From positions 1-34,582 of the forward strand of contig JAWBPF010000003.1 of NCBI GenBank assembly GCA_038825355.1: 34,582 bases of DNA. The letters run 5' to 3'. This DNA is from Candidatus Bathyarchaeia archaeon (GTDB lineage Archaea; Thermoproteota; Bathyarchaeia; 40CM-2-53-6; DTGE01). How positions within the stretch are numbered: the stretch's first letter is position 1; each line of letters begins with the position of its first letter. This document shows, piece by piece, positions 306 to 9,756 of the stretch. The position numbers and the translations under genes were made by a program. The notes below the pieces were generated by a model. That model saw only the letters and a list, made by a program, of their open reading frames with translations, made no database searches and was not told where the DNA came from.

Positions 306-1202
306 TCACGCTATTTTGAAGAGTGGATGAGGAGGCTTAGGACGGATCCCATCCTCAAAGGATAGGTAGCCTAAAGCTGCATCTACCATGGCTACAGCTG
401 GGAAAACCTTCGGAGCATGCTCTATAGGACCGTATAATATGAAGTCGGCTCCGAAGCATGCAGCAATAACCGAGGCTGAAGCTAGCGAAGGATCCCTGGC
501 CTGCAACCCCATCTTACTCTTTAAACCCCTCCAGGTCTCCACAGCGTTATGGGCACCGCAGCCGACGGGTAGACCTAGCCTGTCTTTAACCTCCATTAAA
601 GCCTTAGAGGCTGAGCCCAGAGAAGGTATGTCCAAGACGGCTGTATCCACTAAGGGACGTTTAACTGCTTCGCCGACCATCTCCAATGTTTTCTCAGCGA
701 GCTCCACCCTACCCTTGCTGGTATAAGCCTTAGATGAAAAAGTTAATATTACAGCTGCGTCAATGCCGGAAAGACTCAAGATTCTAAGCTCTTCAGCCTT
801 AAAATCAGGTGTGAGAGAATTATATATCAGAGGCTCCCCTAATCCTAACTCCTTAAGCACTTTAACGGCTTCTATCCTGATATCAGCTGTAACGCCGTCC
901 ACCAGTAAAGGCATATCGGTAACGGCGGCTGCGAACTCTAAATGTCGTACTAGGGCATCGGCAGTAGATCCAACCACGTCTAGCATGCATGGGTTACCTG
1001 TCTTATCCGAGAATTCCTCCTGTAAACTAATAAGCCTCTCAGCCTCCTCCCTGTTGAATTCTCCCTTATCTTCATCTAAGTGAAGCTTCTCTCTAGAGTA
1101 GAAGATGGATCCTATGAGGCAGATTGGACGCCTACCCGGCTCCCCGCCTATCTCTACATCGCCTATCCTAAACCTCTTCTGCTCAACGTTAAACCTGAAC
1201 AT
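306..1202 (-). CDS. mtrH: Tetrahydromethanopterin S-methyltransferase subunit H family (MtrH/MtgA-like pterin-binding methyltransferase)
   Basis: N-terminal F..EQK.F.IG.V.IGG.PG..P..LIGSIFY, plus EFSDKTGNP, GCGAHNA and GADFILYGPIE motifs. Confidence 0.9.
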   Translation of the reverse strand: MFRFNVEQKRFRIGDVEIGGEPGRRPICLIGSIFYSREKLHLDEDKGEFNREEAERLISLQEEFSDKTGNPCMLDVVGSTADALVRHLEFAAAVTDMPLLVDGVTADIRIEAVKVLKELGLGEPLIYNSLTPDFKAEELRILSLSGIDAAVILTFSSKAYTSKGRVELAEKTLEMVGEAVKRPLVDTAVLDIPSLGSASKALMEVKDRLGLPVGCGAHNAVETWRGLKSKMGLQARDPSLASASVIAACFGADFILYGPIEHAPKVFPAVAMVDAALGYLSFEDGIRPKPPHPLFKIA

Positions 1203-1308: not shown

Positions 1309-1321
1309 AAAAACTTATAAG
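1309..1321 (+). promoter_or_regulatory. Putative BRE/TATA promoter of the tRNA gene
   Basis: AAAACTTATAAG lies about 25-30 nt upstream of the GGGCCCGC leader and tRNA 5' end. Confidence 0.5.
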
Positions 1322-1352
1322 TAGACGATACACCTCTCCAATAAGGGCCCGC

Positions 1353-1513
1353 GGGCCCGTAAGGCGCGTTAAGCGTTCGGGAAGCTCAGCCAGGAAGAGC
1401 ACCGGAAGGGTTTAAACCCTGGTGAAGCTTTTAACCCTGGTGTAAGGGGAGGCCACCCGGAAAGGCTTAAAAGCCTTGGGGAGGGGTCCCGGGTTCGAAT
1501 CCCGGCGGGCCCG
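1353..1513 (+). tRNA. tRNA-Lys(UUU) with four BHB introns (1362-1383, 1406-1426, 1434-1454, 1461-1483); CCA not encoded
   Basis: Joining exons 1353-1361, 1384-1405, 1427-1433, 1455-1460 and 1484-1513 gives a fully paired 74-nt cloverleaf: GGGCCCG TA GCTC AGCCAGGAA GAGC A CCGGG CTTTTAA CCCGG GGGTC CCGGG TTCGAAT CCCGG CGGGCCC G. Each removed segment sits in a bulge-helix-bulge motif. Confidence 0.93.
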
Positions 1514-1582
1514 TAAAACCAACAATAAACTTTATTAAAAGCCCGAAAAGCCTATAACTTGCCCACAAGGTGGGTCCTTCAA

Positions 1583-1837
1583 GTGAAAAGAGAGGATAAA
1601 CAAACCTATAACGTGTTGAATCACGCACTAGTTCCCAGGCATATACTCCTTACAGAGGAGGAAGCTGAAGAGCTATTAAAAAAATATCATGTAAAACCTT
1701 ATCAGCTACCCTATATTAAGGTATCCGATCCGGCGGCGAAAGCAGTGGGAGCGAAGCCTGGCGACATAATAAAGATAGTAAGGCGGAGCCCCACCGCAGG
1801 CGAAGCCATAGCCTATAGATACGCTGTGGAGGACTAG
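1583..1837 (+). CDS. rpoH: DNA-directed RNA polymerase subunit H (Rpo5)
   Basis: HALVPRH, LPYIKVSDP and PGDIIKIVRRSPTAG motifs. GTG at 1583 follows an AGGTGG SD-like site; the ORF-track start at 1559 is the alternative. Confidence 0.95.
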   Translation: MKREDKQTYNVLNHALVPRHILLTEEEAEELLKKYHVKPYQLPYIKVSDPAAKAVGAKPGDIIKIVRRSPTAGEAIAYRYAVED

Positions 1838-1839
1838 AA

Positions 1840-4800
1840 ATGGGAGACTACTGGAGCCTAATAGAGCGGTTCCTTCAGGAAGAGGGCTTAGTTAGGCAGC
1901 ATATAGACTCATACAACGACTTTATAGACTACGACATTCAAGCCATAATCGATGAGACAAAGGAGATACCTATAGAGGCTGAGAAATACTCGTTAAAGAT
2001 AAGGTTTGGAAGGATATCTGTAGGCACTCCAAGGGTTATAGAAGTGGATGGTGCTGAGCGTCAAATATACCCCATGGAGGCCAGGATCAGGAATCTGGCA
2101 TATTCCGCCCCAATACATCTAGAAATGACGACGATGATAGACGGCAGAGAGGCTAGGACAGAACTAGTATACATAGGCGATATGCCGGTGATGTTGAAAT
2201 CTAAGATTTGCCCCCTCAGCAGATTAACCCCTGAAGAGCTCCGTAAGATAGGTGAGGACCCCCTAGATCCAGGGGGCTACTTCATAGTAAACGGTTCAGA
2301 ACGTGTAATAGTAGGCTTAGAGGATCTCGTCCCAAATAGGATACTGGTCGAATCCGAGCATACAGGAGTAACCCCCACCTATAAGGCTAAGATATTCTCG
2401 ACAACCGTTGGATTCAGGGCTAGGATAGAAGCTAAGATGAAGAACGACGGCGCCATATACGTATCAACTCCGGGGATACCCGTAGAAGTTCCAATTATTA
2501 TCTTGATAAAGGCGCTAGGAATAGAAGAGGATATAAGGATTGCTGAGATGGTCTCCCCGAGGGAGGAGATCCAAGCTGAAATCGCCCCATCCTTCGAAAA
2601 GGCTTCAGGCATAATATCCCAGAGGGATGCGTTGCAGTACCTTGGAAACCGGCTGGCTCCAGGCCAAGTTGAAGAGTACCGGATGAGAAAAGCTGAGAAC
2701 CTCATAGATAGAAACCTCCTCCCACATATTGGAACCACTCCCGAGAAAAGGGTTGAGAAGGCCTACCTCCTAGCGGAGATAGCACGAAGAATCATCGAGC
2801 TGAAACTCGGAATAAGAGACGAAGACGATAAAGACCATTACGCGAATAAGAGGCTGAAGCTTGCAGGCCCTCTATTATCCGACCTCTTCAGGATAGCCTT
2901 TAGAACCCTTACAAGGGACATGAAGTATCAGCTTGAAAAAGTGATAATAAGACGGCACGGCGAGATACTAGTATCCAACGCTGTACGTCCAGGGATCATA
3001 ACCGAAAGGCTGCAGCATGCCATAGCTACAGGCAACTGGGTGAGGGGAAGGGTTGGGATAACCCAGCTGCTGGATAGGACGAGCTACTACTCCACATTAA
3101 GCCATCTTCGAAGGCTTCAATCCCCCCTAAGTAGAAGCCAGCCCAACTTAGAGGCAAGGGATCTACATTCAACCCACTGGGGAAGGCTGTGTCCAAATGA
3201 GACCCCCGAAGGCTCAAATTGTGGTCTAGTAAAGAACCTAGCCCTCTCAGCTGAGATCTCGGTAGGCTGTCCAGTGGAATCCGTTATCGAAACCCTTAAA
3301 GAGTTAGGGGTAACCCCCATAGAGGAGGCCTCAAAGGATCTCCGCATTAAAGGCACGAAGATCTTTGTAGATGGGATACTAATAGGATACACGGAGGATC
3401 CGGAAACCTTAGTGGCAGCCGTAAGGAGGAGACGAAGGGAGGGAAAGTTAAGCAGTCAACTCAATGCAGCCTATTATCCAGCCCAAAGCCCCGAAGGAGA
3501 GGATGAGATAATAGTAAACTGCGATGCAGGAAGGGTTCGTAGACCCTTAATAGTGGTAGAGAATGGAATACCATTACTAAGCGGAGAAGAGATAGCTAAA
3601 GTCGAAGGAGGCGAGCAGCCTTGGCTATCCCTAATAGAGAGAGGCATAATAGAATATTTGGATTCAGACGAGGAGGAGAACGCCCTAGTAGCCTTAGACC
3701 CCTCCCAGATTACATCTGAAACCACGCATTTAGAGATATCCCCATACGCCATCCTTGGAATATGTGCATCCCTAATACCCTACGCGGAGCATAATCAGTC
3801 TCCTAGAAACGCCTATGAATCAGCCATGGCTAAACAGGCACTCGGAGTATATGCCAGCAATTATTTTAATAGGGTTGACTCTAGAGCTCACATCCTGCAT
3901 TACCCTCAAGCCCCGATAGTTACGGCTAAAAGCTTGAAAACCACCCAGTATAATCGCCGTCCATCAGGACAAAACTGTATAGTGGCCGTGCTCACATCCC
4001 AAAGCTATAATATGGAAGATGCAATAATAATGAATAAGTCCTCCGTAGATAGGGGACTTGCCAGATCCACGTTCTTCAGGACTTATGAAGGCGAATCCAG
4101 ACAATACTTGGGAGGGCTCAGGGATAAGTTCGAGGTACCCGACCCTAACATAAGGGGATACAGGGGAGACCAATATTATAGGCTGCTCGAGGAGGATGGG
4201 GTAATACCTGTAGAGGTGGAAGTGGAGGGAAACACTGTTCTCATAGGAAGGACAAGTCCTCCAAGATTCCTGGAGGAGTATAGGGAATTCGAGGTCTCAG
4301 GCCCTGCGAGGAGGGACTCCTCAATATGTATGCGCCCATCAGAGCTAGGCGTCACCGACGCAGTCTTCATAACGGAGTCTATAGACGGGAACAAGCTGGT
4401 AAAGGTCCGAGTTAGAGATACGAGGATCCCTGAATTAGGCGATAAATTCGCTTCAAGGCATGGCCAGAAAGGGGTTATAGGCCTACTGGTTCCAGCTGAA
4501 GATATGCCCTTCACAGAGTACGGTATAACACCGGATATAATAATAAATCCCCACGCATTCCCATCGAGGATGACTATGGGACAGTTCATAGAGTCTATAG
4601 CAGGTAAGCTAGGCGCGGCTGAAGGAAGATTTATAGACGGCACACCCTTCGGCGGGGAAGGACAGGAGATCCTGAGGCGGCAACTATTAAAAGAAGGCTT
4701 CCAATATAACGGCAGAGAAGTATTATATAATGGGATAAGCGGTGAGAGGCTTGACGTAGAAGTATTCATAGGGATCGTATATTATCAGAAGCTGCATCAC

Positions 4801-5175
4801 ATGGTTGCGGATAAGATGCACGCCAGGGCGAGAGGACAGGTACAGATGCTCACACGACAGCCCACTGAGGGAAGGGCTCGTGGAGGAGGCTTAAGATTTG
4901 GTGAGATGGAACGGGACTGCCTTATAGGCCACGGAGCATCAGCCCTCTTAATGGACCGCCTACTTGAGGAATCCGATAAAGTCACGATCCTAATATGCGA
5001 GGAATGTGGATTAATAGCATACTATGATGTGAAACAGAACCGTTACGTATGTCGCATATGCGGAGAAAAGGCTAAGATATCCCCCATAGCACTATCATAT
5101 GCCTTCAAGCTACTCCTTCAAGAGCTTATGGCTTTAGGTATAGCCCCTAGATTAGAGTTAAAGGAGAAGACCTAA
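1840..5175 (+). CDS. rpoB: DNA-directed RNA polymerase subunit B (Rpo2), unsplit
   Basis: GGYFIVNGSERV, GDKFASRHGQKG, RFGEMERD and a C-terminal Zn ribbon; 1111 aa with no intein-sized insert. Confidence 0.98.
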   Translation: MGDYWSLIERFLQEEGLVRQHIDSYNDFIDYDIQAIIDETKEIPIEAEKYSLKIRFGRISVGTPRVIEVDGAERQIYPMEARIRNLAYSAPIHLEMTTMIDGREARTELVYIGDMPVMLKSKICPLSRLTPEELRKIGEDPLDPGGYFIVNGSERVIVGLEDLVPNRILVESEHTGVTPTYKAKIFSTTVGFRARIEAKMKNDGAIYVSTPGIPVEVPIIILIKALGIEEDIRIAEMVSPREEIQAEIAPSFEKASGIISQRDALQYLGNRLAPGQVEEYRMRKAENLIDRNLLPHIGTTPEKRVEKAYLLAEIARRIIELKLGIRDEDDKDHYANKRLKLAGPLLSDLFRIAFRTLTRDMKYQLEKVIIRRHGEILVSNAVRPGIITERLQHAIATGNWVRGRVGITQLLDRTSYYSTLSHLRRLQSPLSRSQPNLEARDLHSTHWGRLCPNETPEGSNCGLVKNLALSAEISVGCPVESVIETLKELGVTPIEEASKDLRIKGTKIFVDGILIGYTEDPETLVAAVRRRRREGKLSSQLNAAYYPAQSPEGEDEIIVNCDAGRVRRPLIVVENGIPLLSGEEIAKVEGGEQPWLSLIERGIIEYLDSDEEENALVALDPSQITSETTHLEISPYAILGICASLIPYAEHNQSPRNAYESAMAKQALGVYASNYFNRVDSRAHILHYPQAPIVTAKSLKTTQYNRRPSGQNCIVAVLTSQSYNMEDAIIMNKSSVDRGLARSTFFRTYEGESRQYLGGLRDKFEVPDPNIRGYRGDQYYRLLEEDGVIPVEVEVEGNTVLIGRTSPPRFLEEYREFEVSGPARRDSSICMRPSELGVTDAVFITESIDGNKLVKVRVRDTRIPELGDKFASRHGQKGVIGLLVPAEDMPFTEYGITPDIIINPHAFPSRMTMGQFIESIAGKLGAAEGRFIDGTPFGGEGQEILRRQLLKEGFQYNGREVLYNGISGERLDVEVFIGIVYYQKLHHMVADKMHARARGQVQMLTRQPTEGRARGGGLRFGEMERDCLIGHGASALLMDRLLEESDKVTILICEECGLIAYYDVKQNRYVCRICGEKAKISPIALSYAFKLLLQELMALGIAPRLELKEKT

Positions 5176-8100
5176 ATGATTGTCGGCGAAGAACTCTTCA
5201 AAGCCGTAGATTCGATAAGATTCACCCTCTCATCCCCGAGCGAGATTAGAAAGATGTCTGTAGTCGAGGTGCAGACAGCTGACACATACGACGAGGATGG
5301 AGTCCCAATACCTTCAGGCCTAATGGATGGAAGGCTGGGAACATTAGAGCCTAGACAGAAATGTAAAACCTGCGGAAACACGGCGGTCAACTGCCCAGGC
5401 CACTTCGGGCACATCGAATTGGCTGAGCCGGTAATCCACGTCTCATTCGTCAAGATCATACATAGGCTTCTAACATCCACTTGCAGGAGTTGTGGAAGGA
5501 TACTCCTCCCAGAGGAACGAGTATCCCACTATCTAGAGGAGATAGAGCATAAGAGGGAAGTATTCAATATAGCTCCTGAAGGCATATATGATGCGATATA
5601 TAAGGAGGCTAAGAAATCCCGGGAATGCCCGTATTGTGGAGCCGAGCAATACGAGATAGAGTATATGAAGCCGACTACTTTCCATGAGCTTAGGGAAAGC
5701 GGCGCAATCAGGCTGACTCCAGGAGCGGTAAGGGAACGCCTAGAAAGGATATCGGAAGGAGACCTACTTCTTTTCGGTATAAACTCTAAAGCGGCGAGAC
5801 CTGAATGGGCTGTGCTCCAGGTGCTCCCCGTGCCCCCCGTCACAGTGAGGCCCTCCATAACCCTAGAATCCGGCGTGAGATCAGAGGACGATCTAACTCA
5901 TAAACTCGTAGATATAATAAGGATAAACCAGAAACTTAGGGAGGCATTGGACTCAGGGGTGCCGGTGAACATAATTCAAGAGCTCCACGACCTCCTCCAA
6001 TACCATGTAACCACATACTTCGATAATGAGGTTTCAGGTATCCCTCCGGCGAGGCATAGATCGGGAAGGGCGTTGAAGACGCTCTCTCAGAGGCTCAAAG
6101 GGAAGGAAGGAAGATTCAGGGGCAATCTATCAGGAAAAAGAGTTGACTTTTCAGCGAGGACGGTTATATCCCCAGACCCCAATCTTGAACTCAACGAAGT
6201 AGGCGTCCCGATAGATGTAGCCTCTCGTTTAACAGTTCCAGTTAACGTTACCCCCTGGAACCTGGATGAGATGAGGGAGTTGGTGCGAAACGGTCCAGAT
6301 AAGTATCCAGGCGCATTATACGTTATACGTCCAGACAACCGTAGGGTACGTCTTGAATTCGTCTCCGGAAGGGAGGAATTAGCTGAAGCCTTACAGCCAG
6401 GCTTCATAGTTGAAAGGCATCTTAGAGATGGAGACATCGTATTATTCAATAGGCAGCCTTCACTTCATCGCATGTCTATCATGGCCCACAGGGTTAAGGT
6501 TTTACCTTATAAAACGTTCAGGCTTAATCCATGCGTCTGCCCACCATACAACGCGGACTTCGACGGTGATGAGATGAACCTCCACGTCCCACAGAGCGAG
6601 GAAGCACGCACCGAGGCTAGGCTTTTAATGCAGGTACAAGACCAGATATTATCGCCAAGATACGGTGGTCCAATAATAGGCGCAATAAGGGATCATCTAA
6701 GCGCCTCCTATCTTTTAACCCATAAATCCACGTATCTAGCTAAGGATGCTGTCGCTAGGCTCCTTGTGGCAGCTGGATACGAGGGATCCCTACCAGAGCC
6801 GGAGGTTAAAGAGCCGACGCCATTATGGAGTGGGAAACAGATATTCAGCTTATTCATCCCTAAAGATCTCAACTTCATCTCGAAGTCAAGCATCTGCGGT
6901 ATATATAAATGCGAAGCATGTCTACGTGAAAACTGCCCATACGACGCCTACATAGTTATAAAGGATGGACGGCTCGTTACAGGAGTAATAGATAAGGCGA
7001 CTATCGGAGCTGAAAAATCTGAAAGCCTTCTACATAGGATAGTGAAAGACTACGGCCCAGGCTACGGTAAAAAATTCCTAGACTCAATATCTAAGCTGCT
7101 GGACAGGTTCATAACCCTTAGGGGATTCACATACTCCCTGGATGAACTCGACATACCAGATGAGGTTAAGAGGGAGATAGATCAAATCATAGAGGATTCG
7201 GAGAATAATGTGAAAAAGCTCATAGAAAAGTATAAGGTTGGTGAGCTTGAGAGGCTTCCAGGACAAACCTTAGAGGAATCCTTAGAGATATACATTATGA
7301 ACGAGCTTTCAAAGGCCAGAGATAAGGCAGGGGAACGCGTAGAGGAATACTTCACGTTAGGGAATTCCGGCATAGTAATGGCTGCGACAGGGGCTCGTGG
7401 ATCCATGTTAAATATTGGTCAGATGTCCGCCTGCCTCGGGCAGCAATCCATAAGAGGTAAACGCATCTCCAGAGGCTATAAGGGGAGAACCCTGCCTTTC
7501 TTTAAGCCTGGAGATGCAGGAGCAGCCGCAAGGGGATTCGTATATTCATGTTATAGGGATGGCTTAAGCCCCATGGAGTTCTTCTTCCATGCGATGGGAG
7601 GTAGAGAAGGCCTAGTAGATACGGCGGTGAGGACCCAGCAGAGCGGATACATGCAGAGGAGGCTGATAAACGCGTTAGAGCATATACGCGTCGAATATGA
7701 TGGCACTGTCCGAGACTCCGATGGAGATATAATCCAATTCGATTATGGCGAGGACGGCGTAGACGCGGCTAAAAGCGATCATGGAAAAGCGGTAAACGTA
7801 GAAAACATTATCGCAAGGGTGAGATTAAAGCATGGGAAGGGAGGGGCGGCGCCTCCCAACTACATTGAGAAGCATGTAAATGAAGCGGCTTCAAAGCTTA
7901 CTCCAATACTCCATAAAACCCTAATGGAATCCCTGAAGAAATCTGGGCTTACCAGGAAGGGAGTGGATGAAGTAATAAGGTTGACCCTTAGAAGCTATAG
8001 GCGATCCCTAATAGAGGCAGGCGAGGCCGCAGGTATAGTATCAGCCCAATCCATAGGTGAGCCTGGAACTCAGATGACCCTGAGGACCTTCCATTATGCT

Positions 8101-9015
8101 GGCGTCAGGGAAAGAAACGTAACCCTTGGCCTTCCAAGATTGATCGAGATAGTCGACGCGCGGAGAACCCCTTCAACACCGAGTATGACCGTGTATTTAG
8201 ATAAGGATCATAGGAGGGATAGGTCCCAAGCGGAGGAGATAGCGAACATGATAACCCATACGACGATCAGAGACGTTGCAGATCTGATAGAATCGGATAT
8301 TATAGAGATGACTATCAGGATCATTTTAAACCCTGAGGCCATGGCTAAGAGGAGTGTTTCCTTAGAAGAGGTTAAGAAGGCCTTAACCCTCCCTCACTGC
8401 GAGGTCTCAGCAGACGGCTGTGAAGTGACCTTGGAGGTTAAGGGTAGAGACATACCCCAGTTTAGGCGTTTAGCCGCCCATATACCTGATCTGAAGGTTA
8501 AGGGATTAACGGCGGTTAAAAGGGCTTTATTGGTGGAAGAGGAAGGCGAATGGATAATAGTCACGGAGGGATCAAGCCTAAAGTCTATAATGGCTGTGCC
8601 TGGAGTGGATCCCACCAGGACCATATCAAATAATATCCATGAGGTTGCTGAAGTATTAGGGGTAGAAGCAGCTAGAAACGTGATAGTAAAAGAGTCTCTT
8701 GAAGTCTTAGAGGAGCAGGGATTAGACGTAGATATAAGACATATCATGCTCGTAGCGGATGCGATGACGGCCTCAGGTGAGGTGAAGCAGGTTGGCCGAC
8801 ATGGAATAAGCGGAGGGAAGGCGAGTACTCTGGCTAGAGCCGCATTCGAGATAACAGTTCCAACACTAGTGGATGCCGCGTTAAAGGGAGCTAGGGATGA
8901 GCTGAAGGGAGTCGCTGAAAACGTCATAGTGGGGCAGCAGATACCCATGGGTACTGGGCTTATAGAGGTTTACATGACGCTGCCTGAGAGGACCGATGAA
9001 AAGGAAGGGGAGTAG
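5176..9015 (+). CDS. rpoA1: DNA-directed RNA polymerase subunit A, fused A'+A'' (Rpo1)
   Basis: NADFDGDEMN catalytic motif, CPGHFGH, and A'' motifs (QSIGEPGTQMTLRTFH, LARAAFE) in one 1279-aa ORF. Confidence 0.97.
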   Translation: MIVGEELFKAVDSIRFTLSSPSEIRKMSVVEVQTADTYDEDGVPIPSGLMDGRLGTLEPRQKCKTCGNTAVNCPGHFGHIELAEPVIHVSFVKIIHRLLTSTCRSCGRILLPEERVSHYLEEIEHKREVFNIAPEGIYDAIYKEAKKSRECPYCGAEQYEIEYMKPTTFHELRESGAIRLTPGAVRERLERISEGDLLLFGINSKAARPEWAVLQVLPVPPVTVRPSITLESGVRSEDDLTHKLVDIIRINQKLREALDSGVPVNIIQELHDLLQYHVTTYFDNEVSGIPPARHRSGRALKTLSQRLKGKEGRFRGNLSGKRVDFSARTVISPDPNLELNEVGVPIDVASRLTVPVNVTPWNLDEMRELVRNGPDKYPGALYVIRPDNRRVRLEFVSGREELAEALQPGFIVERHLRDGDIVLFNRQPSLHRMSIMAHRVKVLPYKTFRLNPCVCPPYNADFDGDEMNLHVPQSEEARTEARLLMQVQDQILSPRYGGPIIGAIRDHLSASYLLTHKSTYLAKDAVARLLVAAGYEGSLPEPEVKEPTPLWSGKQIFSLFIPKDLNFISKSSICGIYKCEACLRENCPYDAYIVIKDGRLVTGVIDKATIGAEKSESLLHRIVKDYGPGYGKKFLDSISKLLDRFITLRGFTYSLDELDIPDEVKREIDQIIEDSENNVKKLIEKYKVGELERLPGQTLEESLEIYIMNELSKARDKAGERVEEYFTLGNSGIVMAATGARGSMLNIGQMSACLGQQSIRGKRISRGYKGRTLPFFKPGDAGAAARGFVYSCYRDGLSPMEFFFHAMGGREGLVDTAVRTQQSGYMQRRLINALEHIRVEYDGTVRDSDGDIIQFDYGEDGVDAAKSDHGKAVNVENIIARVRLKHGKGGAAPPNYIEKHVNEAASKLTPILHKTLMESLKKSGLTRKGVDEVIRLTLRSYRRSLIEAGEAAGIVSAQSIGEPGTQMTLRTFHYAGVRERNVTLGLPRLIEIVDARRTPSTPSMTVYLDKDHRRDRSQAEEIANMITHTTIRDVADLIESDIIEMTIRIILNPEAMAKRSVSLEEVKKALTLPHCEVSADGCEVTLEVKGRDIPQFRRLAAHIPDLKVKGLTAVKRALLVEEEGEWIIVTEGSSLKSIMAVPGVDPTRTISNNIHEVAEVLGVEAARNVIVKESLEVLEEQGLDVDIRHIMLVADAMTASGEVKQVGRHGISGGKASTLARAAFEITVPTLVDAALKGARDELKGVAENVIVGQQIPMGTGLIEVYMTLPERTDEKEGE

Positions 9016-9020
9016 GCTGA

Positions 9021-9314
9021 ATGGACCTGCAGAGAGAGCTTAGGCTGGCCTTGGAGAGCGGTGAAGTATCTGTAGGCTTCAGAGAAGCCTTGAAAGCCGT
9101 CAGGACGGGAAAGGCTAAATTATTAATAGTGTCCATGAATCACTCAGATGAGGTTAAGGGGCTCCTAGGAGATGCCTCGGAGATTCCGGTTTATAGATTT
9201 AAGGGCAGTAATATCGATCTAGGAGCATTGTGCGGTAAGAGACATCCCATCTCCATATTAGCTGTCAAAAAGCCGGGGACATCGGACATCCTCAGCTTGG
9301 TGGGTGGAGGATAG
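9021..9314 (+). CDS. rpl30e: 50S ribosomal protein L30e
   Basis: G.V..G.REALKA, DLGALCGK.HPIS.LAV..PG.SDIL motifs; canonical position after rpoA. Confidence 0.93.
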   Translation: MDLQRELRLALESGEVSVGFREALKAVRTGKAKLLIVSMNHSDEVKGLLGDASEIPVYRFKGSNIDLGALCGKRHPISILAVKKPGTSDILSLVGGG

Positions 9315-9321
9315 GCTGGAA

Positions 9322-9756
9322 TTGGCGTCGGGTATAAAGCTGACGGGGGATGAGATGCGCTACATAGCTCTCTTTGAAAGCGTAACCAGGGCAACAGCCC
9401 TGGACTGTATAATAGATGGTAGGAATGACCGTGTAATATTCGTGGCTAAGCAGGGGGACATGGGCTTAGCGATAGGGAAAGGTGGTAAGAACGTCGGGCT
9501 ACTACGGAAACTATTAGGGAAACCTGTCGAAGTCGTGGAGTACTCAGACTCCCCGGATCAACTTGTCAAGAACAGCCTTGCTCCAGCAAGGATAAGATCG
9601 GTCAGGATGGCTGAAAAACCTGGAAGGCGCATATTAATAATAGAGGTTGACCCGAAGGATAAGGCGTTAGCTATTGGACGCAACGGTAAAACCATAGAGA
9701 AGACGAGGATGCTCGTCAAGCGGTATTTCCAGATAGACCATGTGACAGTCACGTGA
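9322..9756 (+). CDS. nusA: Archaeal NusA (KH-domain transcription factor)
   Basis: IKLT.DEMRYIALFE, AIGKGGKNV and AIGRNGK KH motifs. TTG start at 9322 follows GGAGG; 9304 is the alternative. Confidence 0.95.
   Translation: MASGIKLTGDEMRYIALFESVTRATALDCIIDGRNDRVIFVAKQGDMGLAIGKGGKNVGLLRKLLGKPVEVVEYSDSPDQLVKNSLAPARIRSVRMAEKPGRRILIIEVDPKDKALAIGRNGKTIEKTRMLVKRYFQIDHVTVT

Follow-up and report, generated by a model that had tools for sequence, protein, structure and literature searches.

A probable preferred, not compulsory, splicing order in a four-intron bathyarchaeal tRNA-Lys(UUU) gene, with a likely helper helix at the end of the canonical intron

The tRNA-Lys(UUU) gene in the window (the whole stretch of 34,582 nucleotides that was analysed) carries four BHB introns, at 9/10, 30/31, 37/38 and 43/44, whose motifs partly overlap. 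Sequence comparison and folding models suggest that these introns are removed stepwise in a preferred but not compulsory order, in which the end of intron 3 would help the folding of intron 4 and a 5′ leader would serve as a decoy for the acceptor stem; we assign this reading a probability of about 0.6. An ordered excision of archaeal introns with overlapping motifs has been published before. What appears to be new is that the CC end of the 37/38 intron tracks the presence of a 43/44 neighbour. That the last two bases of an intron change with the presence of its neighbour suggests that tRNA introns are not all inert passengers, which bears on intron accumulation in some archaeal lineages.

Structure of the tRNA-Lys(UUU) gene

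Excision of the four introns (Table 1) yields a 74-nt cloverleaf recognized by ARAGORN as tRNA-Lys(TTT). The unspliced gene gave no match by ARAGORN or Rfam; such multi-intron tRNA genes escape both. The exon junctions agree with those of relatives that lack each intron. All four introns have motifs with a 4-bp central helix flanked by two 3-nt bulges and a cut after the second bulge base. The central helix has four of four pairs in introns 1–3, and that of intron 4 consists of three C-G pairs plus an A1455.G1481 mismatch; in intron 2 both of its strands are altered in Lys(CUU) relatives. The spacing of a TATA-like box places the likely transcription start near 1345. The same four introns occur in three other genomes of the family, and 20 of 139 parsed Lys genes, a selected sample, have four.

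Table 1. Features of the tRNA-Lys(UUU) gene and its surroundings (window coordinates)
Feature	Coordinates	Strand	Basis or remark
TATA-like box	1315..1321	+	sequence; TTATAAG also upstream of three family orthologues
5′ leader, copy of acceptor 5′ strand	1345..1352	+	predicted pairing with 1505-1512, freeing nt 1-7
tRNA-Lys(UUU) gene	1353-1513	+	
Exon 1, tRNA nt 1-9	1353..1361	+	spliced cloverleaf
Intron 1, 9/10, 22 nt	1362..1383	+	BHB fold
Intron 1 helices	central 1356-1359/1378-1381, inner 1363-1367/1373-1377, outer 1353-1355/1385-1387	+	
Exon 2, nt 10-30	1384..1405	+	spliced cloverleaf
Intron 2, 30/31, 21 nt	1406..1426	+	BHB fold
Intron 2 helices	central 1400-1403/1421-1424, inner 1407-1411/1416-1420, outer 1397-1399/1428-1430	+	
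Exon 3, nt 31-37, anticodon UUU 1430-1432	1427..1433	+	spliced cloverleaf
Intron 3, canonical 37/38, 21 nt	1434..1454	+	BHB fold
Intron 3 helices	central 1428-1431/1449-1452, inner 1435-1438/1445-1448, outer = anticodon stem	+	
Helper strand GGCC in intron 3	1451..1454	+	possible pairing with 1485-1488, intron 4 outer helix
Exon 4, nt 38-43, 6 nt	1455..1460	+	anticodon stem or intron 4 central helix
Intron 4, 43/44, 23 nt	1461..1483	+	register set by relatives without 43/44 intron
Intron 4 helices	central 1455-1458/1478-1481 (A.G mismatch), inner 1462-1467/1472-1477	+	
Exon 5, nt 44-73, no CCA encoded	1484..1513	+	spliced cloverleaf
rpoH, rpoB, fused rpoA′A″, L30e, nusA (downstream context)	1559..9756	+	

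Several other placements were considered and dropped. If the tRNA is made to start at 1345, positions 8 and 9 read C8-G9 and the inner helix is lost, whereas a start at 1353 gives U8-A9 and the full motif. Intron 3 can slide from 38/39 to 41/42 with the same product, and these positions fit the motif less well than 37/38. For intron 4, the 44/45 register was rejected as the product since it yields a 7-nt variable loop unlike that of the relatives. A second register, 1462-1482, has equal modelled energy and would leave two extra variable-loop bases; the sequence 1459-1484 allows both registers.

A 10-base direct repeat (window 1415-1424 and 1433-1442) links the 3′ portion of intron 2 to the beginning of intron 3, and is inexact in a same-genus relative. 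A decoy anticodon stem could arise between its second copy and 1400-1405; alternatively, the repeat could be a trace of copying between introns. An MtrH/MtgA-family methyltransferase gene (window 306-1202, minus strand) lies divergent from the tRNA gene. Downstream, a single 1279-aa frame (window 5176-9015) encodes RNA polymerase A′ and A″ as a fusion, and B is unsplit. The named homologues of the NusA encoded there mostly carry the label Bathyarchaeia, which would place the genome in that class. The tRNA-Trp(CCA) gene of the host genome (G000:C42, T-loop near 2216, plus strand) likewise parses with four introns, at 10/11, 28/29, 37/38 (68 nt) and 45/46.

Overlap of the intron motifs

The first-pass annotation had argued, from pairings drawn between particular bases, that the overlapping motifs impose an obligatory splicing order. 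The bases in question are exactly as described: GAG at 1397-1399, CTT at 1428-1430, GGCC at 1451-1454 and GGTC at 1485-1488. The motifs of introns 2 and 3 both need 1428-1430 and are indeed mutually exclusive, and exon 4 and 1451-1454 are claimed by the motifs of both intron 3 and intron 4. The central helix of intron 3 therefore shuts out the outer helices of both introns 2 and 4. The removal of intron 2 does complete the outer helix of intron 3, which has one pair before it (G1427-C1456) and five after. The gene thus has the properties of nested introns, in that adjacent motifs share bases (2 with 3, 3 with 4) and the motif of intron 3 becomes full only once another intron is gone. The overlap between introns 2 and 3 involves exon bases only; the 30/31 position by itself entails this overlap, which therefore cannot be taken as a sign of selection.

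Two other elements of that proposal survive in part. The outer helix of intron 4, GGCC:GGUC, is present in the gene, but its fourth pair, G1451-C1488, is found in only 13 of the 47 relatives whose intron 3 ends in CC (a tally read by eye), so that the conserved part of the helper is GCC. The hairpins of introns 1, 2 and 4, said to fold at the same time, do not overlap and are allowed to co-fold, but they are not the predicted ground state: adopting all three costs 9.5 kcal/mol relative to the ensemble of the full precursor, and 17.2 kcal/mol when the leader is absent.

Folding models of the anticodon arm

Motif costs for the window gene were obtained from constrained ViennaRNA ensembles at 37 °C, which are rough for BHB motifs. 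For the motif of intron 3 the cost falls from 4.4 kcal/mol in the full precursor to 0.3 kcal/mol once intron 2 is gone. The motif of intron 2 costs 1.8–3.7 kcal/mol, rising to 4.1–8.6 kcal/mol if intron 3 is removed first. Removal of intron 3 last, as proposed earlier, is thus the preferred route in the model. The probability of the intron 2 motif is ≤0.09 in every modelled state, so nearest-neighbour energies describe BHB motifs poorly.

The idea that intron 3 supplies the splice signal of intron 4 fared worse, since the core helix of intron 4 is accessible in the model without intron 3. In the window gene its central and inner helices cost 0.8–2.6 kcal/mol with intron 3 present or absent, and the median cost of this core over 44 rows (two genes parsed twice) is 0.3 kcal/mol without intron 3 vs. 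1.1 kcal/mol with it. Minimal anticodon arms were modelled for 40 genes with a CC end; replacing CC in silico by AG or AA moved the balance towards the intron 3 fold in all 40, with a median energy difference of −4.2 kcal/mol for CC vs. −1.2 (AG) and −0.8 (AA) kcal/mol, a swap which takes away pairs by construction. In the full-length precursor, CC to AA also raised the cost of the intron 3 motif. This shift, taken with the accessibility of the intron 4 helix in the absence of intron 3, suggests that intron 3 offsets a competition of its own making and adds nothing that would otherwise be missing.

The end of intron 3 and the 43/44 neighbour

Lys genes were collected by pattern search over 401 genomes of the class Bathyarchaeia, because synteny with rpoH was too narrow for the collection of orthologues. 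A match had to have an intact T-arm, ACCYG at 38-42 and introns whose lengths fell inside preset limits, and many of the 401 genomes are consequently without a match. Rows with downstream or non-canonical introns numbered 112, three false parses and one duplicate being removed. The counts given here are of matches, from a by-eye reading of the rows, and kin among them are not independent.

Among the 58 genes with introns at both 37/38 and 43/44, intron 3 ends in CC in 47, in TC in 2, in AC in 6 and in AA in 3. The CC end can pair with G45-G46, and the two TC genes keep a U-G pairing; the pairing is absent in the nine genes with AC or AA ends. A CC end occurs in 0 of 82 Lys genes with the canonical intron and nothing downstream, and in 0 of 23 with introns at 37/38 and 44/45. 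This contrast makes it likely that selection maintains a helper helix for intron 4 at the end of intron 3. Comparative support for this role is good, and the role may be a novel one. The contrast also upholds the link between the two introns drawn by the first-pass annotation. Both states are present in four families (f2, f3, f8 and f14), with CC only alongside a 43/44 intron, and in f8 two Lys genes within the same genomes differ in this respect. Relatedness among these genes means that CC may have arisen only a few times. Outside the class, the two genes found with both introns both end in AA.

A lack of function is one alternative: the 37/38 and 43/44 introns could have been inherited or copied as a block that ends in CC by chance, and would then be removed in any order. 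Shared ancestry within one order, the intron copying among tRNA genes described in Thermoproteales (PMC4090602) and the exceptions to the CC rule all speak for it. We nevertheless consider it unlikely, because CC is retained while the length (14–30 nt) and body of the intron vary widely, and because in f8 the central strand has been refitted to a CUU anticodon with CC retained. Moreover, in f2 the gene of G052, which has an intron body near-identical to those of G023 and G034 and no 43/44 intron, ends in AC, and the controls prefer A at the place in question.

In the 82 controls the penultimate base of intron 3 is A in 79 and T in 3, and an adenine at the first bulge position is described as the base gripped by the endonuclease (PMC3241643). 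CC might therefore act mainly as a brake on the bulge of intron 3, or else as a guide to the register of intron 4, over and above any stabilization of the motif; the equal modelled energy of the second register 1462-1482 would fit the latter. Both roles seem rather unlikely. A brake needs no complementarity, yet the non-A bases found in two-intron genes are C or U, which are able to pair with G46. As for a guide, the second register is also present in genes without the helper, and the outer helix makes no choice between registers in the model.

Genes with the 43/44 intron alone

A 43/44 intron does occur without a complementary 37/38 end, which argues against the word "obligatory". Besides the 9 of 58 two-intron genes without the pairing, 27 genes have a 43/44 intron and no 37/38 intron. 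All of them are Lys(CUU) genes, including that of the host genome itself (G000:C49:5918-5974, minus strand), which has a D-loop intron and introns at 30/31 and 43/44 but not the canonical one. The Lys(CUU) gene of G009 has a 43/44 intron and neither the 37/38 nor the 30/31 intron. A pattern spotted post hoc concerns the pair 27-43 in genes that were fetched whole: with C27-G43 and a 43/44 intron, 22 of 23 end in CC, whereas the 43/44 genes that lack the canonical intron, 25 in this set, all show a G27.A43 mismatch. Since the 30/31 intron, too, occurs without the canonical one, removal of intron 3 before intron 2 need not be a dead end.

A strictly obligatory order, in which intron 4 needs intron 3 to be present and intron 3 stays uncut until intron 2 is out, therefore appears quite improbable. 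It draws on the mutual exclusion of the motifs, on the chance that real tertiary folding locks the C27-G43 stem beyond what the model captures, and on the Lys(UUU) genes with a 43/44 intron, 51 of 51 of which also carry the 37/38 intron; this last count has little power, as every Lys(UUU) gene listed for the order has the canonical intron. The genes described above stand against it, as does the apparent type of the splicing enzyme.

Second Lys gene copies were also observed (G104:C7:47736-48845, G146:C53:1497-3917, G148 and G003), some of them close together on one contig. They may mark integration sites or strain mixing.

Splicing enzymes

The host genome has an RtcB ligase and two endonuclease paralogues, open frames of 193 and 196 aa. 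The catalytic paralogue aligns with a solved crenarchaeal alpha subunit (best structure match, E 3e-45), its loop lysine falling opposite residue 44. This match is presumably the A. pernix enzyme, which fits the residue numbering in PMC3241643. With two paralogues, one of them catalytic and bearing the crenarchaeal loop lysine, the host endonuclease looks like the (alpha-beta)2 type. Enzymes of this type are reported to cut relaxed motifs that lack one flanking helix (PMC3241643, PMC3239211), which weakens any strict dependence of one intron on another.

A leader copy of the acceptor strand

The 5′ leader copies the acceptor 5′ strand of the tRNA. In ViennaRNA models at 37 °C the motif of intron 1 costs 0.2–3.2 kcal/mol with the leader and 3.7–9.3 kcal/mol without it, so the intron 1 hairpin is predicted to depend on 1345-1352. 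For comparison, 70 rows with a 9/10 intron (3 of them mis-anchored) were set against 97 controls. The leader reaches a threshold of −10 kcal/mol for predicted pairing with the 3′ acceptor strand in 66 of 67 genes with the 9/10 intron vs. 26 of 97 controls, but this cut-off is weak, being passed by 59% of shuffled leaders, and the medians and motif counts carry the result. The median pairing energies are −19 kcal/mol for real leaders, −11 for shuffled leaders and −7 for controls. The motif GGCGGG is found in the leader in 39 of the 70 rows and in none of the 97 controls. Opposite G73 the leader carries C in 36 of 47 genes, and opposite A73 it carries T in 17 of 21.

Within the host genome a 7-of-7 copy of the gene's own acceptor strand is present in five of five genes with an intron at 8/9-10/11 (Lys, Trp, Gln, Glu and Asn) and in 0 of 20 others, by a tRNA parser in which 23 of 74 T-loop candidates scored above 40, several parses being doubtful and the set being less than the full tRNA complement. 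The tRNA-Trp(CCA) gene on G000:C42 carries such a copy. Outside the class, 9 of 9 genuine 9/10 genes also have it. Across tRNA types and lineages, then, the copy goes together with an intron at 8/9-10/11.

Early formation of the intron 1 hairpin is not favoured by a co-transcriptional folding model, where it costs 2.6–6.4 kcal/mol up to 1460 and 1.0–4.1 kcal/mol thereafter, likely because, before the 3′ strand is made, the palindromic nt 1-6 can offer the leader another partner.

Five tRNA-Asp genes (L018, L020, L008, L017 and L024) have introns within the acceptor stem. L018 and L020 show an upstream acceptor-strand copy and a hairpin, and the 3′ end looks more heavily rearranged in L008, L017 and L024.

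A proposed model of stepwise maturation

We propose that an ordinary archaeal endonuclease and ligase mature the precursor stepwise, with introns 2 and 4 likely leaving before intron 3. Exon 4 would be wanted both by the intron 3 motif, as part of the anticodon stem, and by the central helix of intron 4, and the pairing of the CC of intron 3 with G45-G46 would tip this contest toward intron 4; intron 3 would thereby make up for the competition that it creates. Intron 4 would remain cleavable, as a relaxed motif, if intron 3 left first, though probably with lower efficiency in genes with a strong anticodon stem (C27-G43). The leader copy would hold the 3′ acceptor strand and leave nt 1-7 free for the motif of intron 1, until the true acceptor stem displaces it.

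A broader and more tentative idea, to which we give clearly less weight, is that the precursor has a folding programme of its own, with the discarded end of intron 3 and the 5′ leader selected as temporary partners. Such helpers might let new introns settle in strong tRNA stems, one intron licensing the gain of the next. The Lys gene of the window is a short substrate with natural controls at hand.

Comparison with known systems

Archaeal tRNA genes are described as having up to three introns, one of which may have to leave before the next motif can form (tRNAscan-SE 2.0, PMC8450103), and three is the stated maximum elsewhere (PMC4033280, PMC3218864). No report of a leader copy of the acceptor strand, or of intron nucleotides conserved for pairing on behalf of an adjacent intron, was found in the literature listings and passages searched, which take in few subscription journals.

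In Atabeyarchaeia and Freyarchaeia, 228 introns in three genomes leave most tRNA genes with non-canonical or multiple introns (PMC11291895). The accessible text of that paper describes no analysis of order or shared helices. The known T-loop case with two introns, handled by an epsilon2 enzyme, has a 6-nt exon between them, like introns 3 and 4 here; its accessible description gives no comparative test of helper bases. In pre-tRNAs of Cyanidioschyzon merolae the 37/38 intron also leaves last, the order being set by motif stability as followed by RT-PCR, but there the motifs are independent, not nested, and the enzyme is eukaryotic (PMC3728597).

The closest parallel is provided by the nested archaeal tRNA introns (PMC3978253, PMC3728597) of multi-intron Thermoproteales pre-tRNAs (Sugahara et al. 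2007; Tocchini-Valentini et al. 2009, as cited in both). Those precursors likewise have closely spaced BHB introns, the last motif of which forms after other removals. They differ in that at most three introns are reported, vs. four here in Bathyarchaeia, and in that the accessible accounts describe no intron bases kept for a neighbour, for which comparative evidence is given here. The order in which crowded archaeal introns leave has so far been argued mostly from drawn folds, and natural variants of the kind collected here provide a comparative test.
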